Positions 4,074 to 61,536 of a stretch of DNA of 64,000 bases are shown piece after piece. The DNA lies in the NCBI RefSeq assembly GCF_044647545.1, contig NZ_CP172818.1. One strand, written 5' to 3'. The notes beneath the pieces are model-generated. The model was not told the origin of the DNA and searched no databases. It saw nothing but the letters and a program-made list of their open reading frames with translations. Each line of letters begins with the position of its first letter. Positions within the stretch are counted from its first letter, which is position 1. The stretch comes from Escherichia coli (GTDB lineage: Bacteria > Pseudomonadota > Gammaproteobacteria > Enterobacterales > Enterobacteriaceae). The position numbers and the translations under genes are program-made.

Positions 4074-4116
4074 AAAGCAACCTCAATAAGAAAAACTGCC
4101 GCGAAGGATAGCAGGA

Positions 4117-4485
4117 ATAAAAAAAGGGAGCACTGTATTCACAGTGCTCCCGGTTCGTTTCGCAGCATTCCAGCTACTTTTGTTGCTCCCTGCTCATCCT
4201 TGACAACTTTTCCTCTGGCCTTGCGGCCAATCGTTCATCCTGAACTATTGCTTCCTGCTCACACCACCCCGATGTGATACTTCATCCTGAAGTGTCCCTG
4301 GCCTTCCTGACCCACCGAATCATCCTGACCGGTTCTCATTCTCCATCCTGGAGGTGTCCTTTAACGCGTCCTGCGTCATCCTCTTCGCTTCATCCAGAAG
4401 CCTTTCCCTGAAACACCATCCTGGTGTGTCCTTCAGAAGTGTCATCATCCTGATGTTCACTTCGTTGTCTGACTCCCTGTCGACG
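4117..4485 (-). ncRNA. csrB: CsrB sRNA (CsrA-sequestering RNA)
   Basis: About 369 nt whose reverse complement contains many CAGGAUG / AGGA motifs (seen as repeated 'catcctg' on the + strand) and ends in a GC-rich hairpin plus U-tail (rc of 4119-4151); located between yqcC and syd as in K-12. Confidence 0.9.
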
Positions 4486-22704: not shown

Positions 22705-22910
22705 ACTTCCTGAGCCGGAACGAAAAGTTTTATCGGAATGCGTGTTCTGGTGAACTTTTGGCTTACGGTTGTGATGTTGTGTTGTTGTGTTTGCAATTGG
22801 TCTGCGATTCAGACCATGGTAGCAAAGCTACCTTTTTTCACTTCCTGTACATTTACCCTGTCTGTCCATAGTGATTAATGTAGCACCGCCTAATTGCGGT
22901 GCTTTTTTTT
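22705..22910 (+). ncRNA. gcvB: GcvB sRNA
   Basis: Starts ACTTCCTGAGCCGGAACG, contains the G/U-rich region gttgtgatgttgtgttgttgtgtttgcaat and ends in hairpin caccgcctaattgcggtg plus T8; divergent from gcvA. Confidence 0.9.
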
Positions 22911-27232: not shown

Positions 27233-27309
<77 letters not shown>

Positions 27310-27342
27310 ATTAAAATTTGATGAAGTAAAGCAGTACGGTGA

Positions 27343-27419
<77 letters not shown>

Positions 27420-27452
27420 ATCAAAATTTAATGAAGTAAAGTAGTACGGTGA

Positions 27453-27529
<77 letters not shown>

Positions 27530-56573: not shown

Positions 56574-59940
<3,367 letters not shown>

Positions 59941-60006
59941 TCAGTAAAAGCGAATGGAGGGAGATTACACGAGATAAAGAACGCGAGCGACAGTAAATTA
60001 GGTGCG

Positions 60007-60094
60007 AAAAAAAACCTGCGCATCCGCGCAGGTTGGTGCAAGAGACAGGGTACGAAGAGCGTACCGAATAATCTCACCAATCAATACCTCTGGG
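60007..60094 (-). ncRNA. omrA: OmrA sRNA
   Basis: Reverse complement reads CCCAGAGGTATTGATTGGTGAGATTATTCGGTACGCTCTTCGTACCCTGTCTCTTGCACCAACCTGCGCGGATGCGCAGG + U8 (88 nt), recognised as OmrA. Confidence 0.9.
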
Positions 60095-60209
60095 ATCTTG
60101 ATTGTGGTCTGCACGACGACTCTTCGCCAGCGAGAAAACGCAAAGGAATGAAGGGAAATGCAACGAGGTGTGTAAATTGTCGGTTACTGTTACAGATTGA
60201 TGACCGGCA

Positions 60210-60291
60210 AAAAAAAACCTGCGCATCTGCGCAGGCTGGTGTAATTCATGTGCTCAACCCGAAGTTGACTTCACCTATCAATACCTCTGGG
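60210..60291 (-). ncRNA. omrB: OmrB sRNA
   Basis: Reverse complement reads CCCAGAGGTATTGATAGGTGAAGTCAACTTCGGGTTGAGCACATGAATTACACCAGCCTGCGCAGATGCGCAGG + U-tail; shares 5' and 3' ends with OmrA. Confidence 0.9.
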
Positions 60292-60504
60292 ATCACCACT
60301 TTAGCAACCTGAAGCCAAACGCCACCAGCAGTCAATCGCAACAGCGTTTCGCAAAGTGTAACCAAAGGTTTGCAATCTCTTTTTTTGTCTTACTTATTTG
60401 CGTTTGGCTCACATTCCCACGATGAAAGCATGCCCCCCCTTGAACCAACGGGCGTTTTCCGTAACACTGAAAGAATGTAAGCGTTTACCCACTAAGGTAT
60501 TTTC

Positions 60505-61536
60505 ATGGCGACCATAAAGGATGTAGCCCGACTGGCAGGCGTTTCAGTCGCCACCGTTTCACGCGTCATTAATAATTCACCCAAAGCCAGCGAAGCTTCC
60601 CGACTGGCTGTGCATAGTGCAATGGAGTCTCTTAGCTATCACCCGAACGCCAACGCCCGTGCGCTGGCGCAGCAGACCACTGAAACGATCGGTCTGGTCG
60701 TTGGTGATGTTTCCGATCCGTTTTTCGGTGCAATGGTGAAAGCGGTCGAACAGGTGGCTTATCACACTGGTAATTTTTTATTGATTGGCAACGGTTACCA
60801 CAACGAACAAAAAGAGCGTCAGGCCATTGAGCAACTGATCCGCCATCGCTGTGCTGCGCTGGTTGTCCATGCCAAAATGATCCCGGATGCTGATTTAGCC
60901 TCATTAATGAAACAAATGCCCGGTATGGTGCTGATCAACCGTATCCTGCCTGGCTTTGAAAACCGCTGTATTGCTCTGGACGATCGTTACGGTGCCTGGC
61001 TGGCAACGCGTCATTTAATTCAGCAAGGTCATACCCGCATTGGTTATCTGTGCTCTAACCACTCTATTTCTGACGCCGAAGATCGTCTGCAAGGGTATTA
61101 CGATGCCCTTGCTGAAAGTGGTATTCCGGCCAATGACCGGCTGGTGACATTTGGCGAACCAGACGAAAGCGGGGGCGAACAGGCAATGACCGAGCTTTTG
61201 GGACGAGGCAGAAATTTCACTGCGGTAGCCTGTTATAACGATTCAATGGCGGCGGGCGCGATGGGCGTGCTCAATGATAATGGTATTGATGTACCGGGTG
61301 AGATTTCGTTAATTGGCTTTGATGATGTGCTGGTGTCGCGCTATGTGCGTCCGCGTCTGACCACCGTGCGTTACCCAATCGTGACGATGGCGACCCAGGC
61401 TGCCGAACTGGCTTTGGCGCTGGCGGATAATCGCCCTCTCCCGGAAATCACTAATGTCTTTAGTCCGACGCTGGTACGTCGCCATTCAGTGTCAACTCCG
61501 TCGCTGGAGGCAAGTCATCATGCAACCAGCGACTAA
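60505..61536 (+). CDS. galR: Galactose repressor (LacI family)
   Basis: 343-aa ORF with N-terminal HTH MATIKDVARLAGVSVATVSRVIN; recognised as GalR. Confidence 0.92.
   Translation: MATIKDVARLAGVSVATVSRVINNSPKASEASRLAVHSAMESLSYHPNANARALAQQTTETIGLVVGDVSDPFFGAMVKAVEQVAYHTGNFLLIGNGYHNEQKERQAIEQLIRHRCAALVVHAKMIPDADLASLMKQMPGMVLINRILPGFENRCIALDDRYGAWLATRHLIQQGHTRIGYLCSNHSISDAEDRLQGYYDALAESGIPANDRLVTFGEPDESGGEQAMTELLGRGRNFTAVACYNDSMAAGAMGVLNDNGIDVPGEISLIGFDDVLVSRYVRPRLTTVRYPIVTMATQAAELALALADNRPLPEITNVFSPTLVRRHSVSTPSLEASHHATSD

Follow-up and report, generated by a model that had tools for sequence, protein, structure and literature searches.

The omrA and omrB sRNA genes between aas and galR on an Escherichia coli chromosome segment

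The aas-galR spacer and its two sRNA genes

The window considered here, that is, the whole 64-kb stretch of E. coli DNA that was analyzed, includes aas (57760-59919, minus strand) and galR (60505-61536, plus strand), both delimited by their ORFs and carrying RefSeq names. The 585-bp intergenic region left between these ORFs (59920..60504, with no strand assigned) contains two sRNA genes, both transcribed from the minus strand: omrA, 88 nt long, starts at 60094 and ends with its U-tail at 60007, and omrB, 82 nt long, starts at 60291 and extends to 60210. The order aas, galR, lysA is the same as in other E. coli genomes.

The first reading of this DNA, made from the sequence only, placed two minus-strand Omr sRNAs within 60007-60291 and named alignment to the Rfam OmrA-B family as the way to verify them. 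The search with RF00079, whose gathering score is 40 bits, returned two full-length matches at exactly those limits, each scoring more than twice the gathering score. The match at 60094..60007 reached 96.6 bits (E = 7e-19) and that at 60291..60210 reached 86.1 bits (E = 2.5e-16); both cover model positions 1-87 of 87, and a search of the whole window repeated the same two matches. Further support for the identity of the two genes was provided by E. coli MG1655, in which omrA (b4444) and omrB (b4445) are annotated as ncRNA between aas (b2836) and galR (b2837), on the aas strand. The copy on the aas side is identical to MG1655 omrA over 88/88 nt and the copy on the galR side to MG1655 omrB over 82/82 nt, in agreement with the earlier statement that this is the known Omr pair of the aas-galR region. 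The same comparison supplies an assignment that the sequence-only reading had left open: OmrA is the copy next to aas (60007-60094) and OmrB the one next to galR (60210-60291).

The interval almost certainly consists of the paralogous, independently transcribed genes of two Hfq-dependent base-pairing sRNAs, omrA (60094..60007) and omrB (60291..60210). The finding holds and is not new: the characterization of OmrA and OmrB goes back to 2001-2006, and their sequences here are the same as in the reference, so that the discovery value is small. The Omr locus anchors the window as a segment of the E. coli chromosome, and exact coordinates are now available for both sRNA genes, which lack a RefSeq annotation in strain FDAARGOS_497, the single non-K-12 genome checked, where no gene is listed in the aas-galR spacer.

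The likeness to the locus of E. coli K-12, where the two RNAs, OmrA (RygA, b4444) and OmrB (RygB, b4445), have the same sequences of 88 and 82 nt, extends to the gene order, the strand, the neighbors, the -10 elements, the upstream activator box of omrB and the terminators. Overall, 656 of 661 nt of the locus are identical to K-12, and the 585-bp spacer is 99.2% identical. Strain-level differences occur only outside the RNAs and comprise an extra T, the base at omrB -39 and three SNPs towards galR. The additional T, at 60209, gives the T-run of OmrB nine T here versus eight in K-12. In the omrB promoter a single base is changed, with T in place of C at -39 (60330 in the window). This T creates the motif TTGACT at -44..-39, which is too distant from the omrB -10 element and thus cannot act as a -35 element. 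The three SNPs are clustered at 60428-60435, upstream of galR and beyond the omrB activator region, and through one of them CCACCCC becomes seven consecutive C on the plus strand.

The locus is nearly universal in the species, and how it is distributed across Enterobacterales has been published. A 661-nt query covering aas-omrAB-galR was present in 5,423 of 5,426 complete E. coli genomes, many E. coli chromosomes matching it at 100% identity. Both omr copies occur together in about 99.6% of the complete genomes, as judged from the 5,405 of 5,426 with a query coverage of 80% or more. Of the 5,428 matches to this query, two fall in records classed as plasmids, which is odd for a chromosomal housekeeping locus; the replicons could have been misassigned, or a plasmid could carry a large insert of chromosomal DNA.

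A whole-window Rfam scan and a tRNA scan showed that the window contains other RNA genes besides the Omr pair. They are CsrB (4116-4475, minus strand; Rfam, 382.9 bits), GcvB (22705-22910, plus strand; Rfam, 199 bits) and three tandem tRNA-Met genes with the CAT anticodon and a 110 bp spacing (27233-27529, plus strand; tRNA scan). All of them are expected in this part of the E. coli chromosome.

Conserved ends and divergent middles

The two RNAs have in common their 5' and 3' ends. As had been claimed, they share an identical 5' seed: the 15-mer CCCAGAGGTATTGAT is exact in each copy, and within the 64 kb of the window it has no other occurrence than these two minus-strand ones, at 60080-60094 and 60277-60291, against an average of 0.05 matches in shuffles with up to two mismatches allowed. 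The shared block is longer than the sequence-only reading stated, because pairwise alignment found 20 of the first 21 nt identical. These 21 nt constitute the target-pairing region of OmrA (60074..60094, minus strand) and of OmrB (60271..60291, minus strand), and within them the conserved 5' end CCCAGAGGUAUUGAU is exact in both copies and unpaired in the RF00079 consensus structure.

At the 3' end, each gene possesses an intrinsic terminator, recognized by the terminator scan, by the fold and in the Rfam structure. In OmrA (60007..60034, minus strand), a GC-rich hairpin of 9 bp (60034..60013) precedes 8 T, and in OmrB (60209..60237, minus strand), a GC-rich hairpin of the same length (60237..60216) precedes 9 T. 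The arrangement CCUGCGC-loop-GCGCAGG plus U-tail, a trait of RF00079, is found in both copies, and the stems contain six G-C pairs. The hairpins had been described as nearly identical, and indeed they differ by a G/A exchange in the loop and by a single base at the stem's foot; over the last 35 nt, OmrA and OmrB agree at 32/35 positions. A hairpin plus U-tail is the Hfq-binding module, and this element is the 3' module common to OmrA and OmrB.

Two near-identical GC-rich hairpins with T-runs in an intergenic region might also simply belong to the flanking genes, as their terminators or as repeat elements, with the shared 5' blocks arising by chance. The likelihood of this explanation is vanishingly small, since transcription of both aas and galR leads out of the spacer, where neither gene requires a terminator, the 15-mer seed is seen twice versus the 0.05 occurrences expected, and the covariance model matched end to end, beyond the hairpin. 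Terminators of flanking genes are refuted by the full-length Rfam matches together with the identity to experimentally defined genes.

Between the conserved ends of the two sRNAs, the sequences have diverged, in keeping with the earlier remark that the centers differ. The middles, 32 nt in OmrA and 26 nt in OmrB, align no better than shuffles, with an alignment score of -10 versus a shuffled mean of -8.5, and 77% of the shuffles score as well. The middle of OmrA possesses a specific internal stem-loop (60049..60065, minus strand) with a 6-bp stem, GGTACG/CGTACC, which was located by stem search and fold and corresponds to the inner helix of the Rfam consensus. Both OmrA and OmrB fold better than shuffles (z = -2.7 and -2.9, respectively), and in the minimum-energy fold of OmrA nt 1-15 stay free, in line with the Rfam consensus. 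In the minimum-energy fold of OmrB, unlike the Rfam consensus, nt 7-9 and 12-15 of the targeting region are weakly paired with downstream bases.

The pattern of conservation also bears on the proposal that the interval encodes small proteins, instead of RNAs or besides them, a proposal suggested by the mechanical ORFs of 20-78 aa that overlap the region on both strands. However, six of the eight ORFs overlapping either sRNA gene begin with GTG or TTG, the ORFs run through the hairpins and T-runs, as any 585-bp spacer would give, and none of them is annotated in MG1655. Furthermore, conserved ends flanking a free middle of unequal length (32/26 nt) are the opposite of what coding constraint produces, and the proposal has a negligible probability. 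Coding potential of 60007-60291 was rejected, the spacer ORFs being mechanical.

The conserved ends of the sRNA pair were also recovered independently by a repeat search, as direct repeats of 24 nt at 197 bp spacing and of 38 nt at 203 bp spacing. The 100 nt upstream of the two starts retain a residual similarity, reached by 4 of 1,000 shuffles, as expected if the duplication took in the promoter.

Promoters and target pairing

Each gene has its own promoter, and at the sequence level the bases of the omrA and omrB promoters match those in publications. The -10 elements were placed by counting back from the mapped transcription starts. Counted from the start at 60094, the element of omrA is CACAAT (-12..-7; 60101..60106, minus strand), with C at both -12 and -13, and that of omrB, counted from 60291, is TAAAGT (-12..-7; 60298..60303, minus strand), with T at -12. 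The C at -12 is the sigma-S specificity determinant of the omrA promoter, while omrB, which has T at this position, is sigma-S independent and sigma-70 dependent (review PMC12692685). Further upstream of omrB lies an activator region, AACCTTTGGTTACACTTTGCGAAAC (60346..60370, minus strand; the outer limits are an estimate), which holds T-75 (60366) and A-68 (60359) of the published box B2. These two bases lie in CCTTTGGTTACACTTTGCGAAAC and are as published. Mutation of T-75/A-68 in the omrB promoter abolished activation by pRstAB and lowered activation by pOmpR from 81-fold to 3.3-fold (PMC13425233).

Both genes are activated by EnvZ-OmpR, and the sRNAs in turn repress ompR-envZ, which constitutes a negative feedback (PMC12692685). 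The promoter DNA is one base apart from that of K-12, at omrB -39, and the OmpR activation reported for K-12 would probably apply here as well. For the omrA promoter, a text search of Brosse et al. 2016 (PMC5175337) gave no position of an OmpR box. Neither omr promoter was picked up when 59850-60600 was scanned with a generic sigma-70 consensus, the only match being on the plus strand, inside galR; such a miss is expected of promoters that depend on an activator and have poor -35 elements.

Taken with the published work, these features suggest how the pair may operate. Each gene would be transcribed leftwards from its promoter and would end at its own intrinsic terminator. The omrA gene would be activated by EnvZ-OmpR and depend additionally on sigma-S via -12C, and omrB would use a sigma-70 promoter that is activated by EnvZ-OmpR and can be activated by RstA too. 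With divergent middles and different promoters, the two copies would answer different signals, and some targets would be private to each.

Arrangements of this kind reportedly have counterparts, as the "Sibling rivalry" review is said to describe sibling sRNA pairs with a common seed and separate promoters, for example Qrr1-4, PrrF1/2 and the RyhB paralogues. Like the Omr pair, these are sRNAs that act by base pairing and have been duplicated; the targeting region is conserved, the regulons overlap and the regulation has diverged. Their sequences and regulators are unrelated to those of the Omr pair, and the likeness is one of analogy, not of membership.

The targets of OmrA and OmrB have been studied in K-12, where both are Hfq-dependent base-pairing sRNAs whose control of targets needs Hfq and RNase E (PMC2588501). 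Given the identity of the RNAs to those of K-12, Hfq binding and Hfq-dependent control of targets would be expected here, and the expression and use of omrA and omrB in this strain are presumably as in K-12. Pairing of the conserved 5' end takes place close to where translation of targets such as ompT, cirA and ompR begins, and it was validated by compensatory mutations for the ompT helix and the ompR 5' UTR (PMC2588501). Among the published targets are ompT, cirA, fecA, fepA, csgD, flhDC, btuB, dgcM and ompR.

In the mechanism envisaged for the present pair, the nearly identical single-stranded 5' end CCCAGAGGUAUUGAU would pair near the ribosome-binding site or the early coding region of target mRNAs, and this pairing would lead to a block of translation and to RNase E decay of the target mRNA. 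Repression of ompR-envZ would then close the negative feedback loop on the synthesis of OmrA and OmrB themselves.

This pairing was examined by duplex prediction, with nt 1-24 of each sRNA set against positions -130..+60 of K-12 ompT, ompR and cirA. The published ompT helix was recovered with both OmrA and OmrB, whose nt 1-9 pair without a break over 9 bp with ompT +12..+20. In the ompR leader, the partner of these nine nucleotides, again in both sRNAs, is ACCUUUGGG, which lies at about -19 to -11 according to our own reading of the duplex. Compared with shuffled seeds, the gain in duplex energy is marginal, with fractions of 0.014-0.088 for ompT/ompR and 0.35-0.48 for cirA. For OmrA and cirA, the top-scoring duplex was at -93..-62 and not at the published site overlapping the ribosome-binding site. 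The pairing check is consistent with the mechanism and supports it weakly, and it is no independent proof.

Single-gene variants of the tandem pair

In about 16 of the 5,426 complete E. coli genomes only one Omr gene is left, the pair having collapsed by deletion between the conserved ends. A single Omr gene is found in E. coli EC21Z-137 (L007:313-700) and A29 (L008:261-642), and also at loci L009-L013.

Recombination between direct repeats is expected to yield two deletion products, and junction queries were built for both. A perfect junction of the omrB promoter to OmrA, which corresponds to a 197-bp deletion, was present in 9 complete E. coli genomes, and a perfect junction of OmrB to the region downstream of omrA, which corresponds to a 203-bp deletion and leaves OmrB alone, was present in 7. 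Two examples were aligned and revealed clean deletions of 197 and 203 bp whose ends fall inside the repeats, with one RF00079 match per locus. The single-copy loci thus have the same aas-galR spacer, omrB promoter and conserved 5' and 3' ends as the window, but the 197 or 203 bp separating the direct repeats are missing from them and they contain one gene, whereas the window has the full tandem pair.

The aas and galR alleles differ among the sampled carriers. Within flanking aas, three carriers of the chimera are 7-17 nt per 1,300 nt apart, and two OmrB-only carriers differ by 17 nt; on account of these differences, the sampled carriers do not represent one clone. The conserved omr ends, which are direct repeats as well, appear to be substrates for recurrent deletion. 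The same two outcomes, a chimera of the omrB promoter and OmrA or OmrB alone, were described in other Enterobacteriaceae (PMC13425233).

The existence of genomes with a single Omr gene, in E. coli and in two strains of Shigella boydii from which omrB is missing according to the literature, indicates that OmrB is dispensable in some lineages, and could be taken to mean that one copy is a decaying, nonfunctional duplicate, while the other alone acts as an sRNA. This hypothesis is challenged by several facts. Both copies in the window are base-identical to K-12 alleles shown to be separately expressed and active, promoter elements and terminators are intact in both, and both copies are kept in about 99.6% of the complete E. 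coli genomes (5,405/5,426). Decay of one copy is thus very unlikely, even if a little less so than the two explanations dismissed above.

On balance, we regard it as somewhat probable that within the species the tandem pair has repeatedly collapsed to the same two single-gene forms that occur in other enterobacterial genera. This reading concerns related genomes, as the pair in the window is intact, and the rare single-copy variants of E. coli add a minor population-genetic footnote to a pattern published for other species. If true, recurrent collapse would rewire which transcript is driven by the OmpR- and RstA-responsive omrB promoter.
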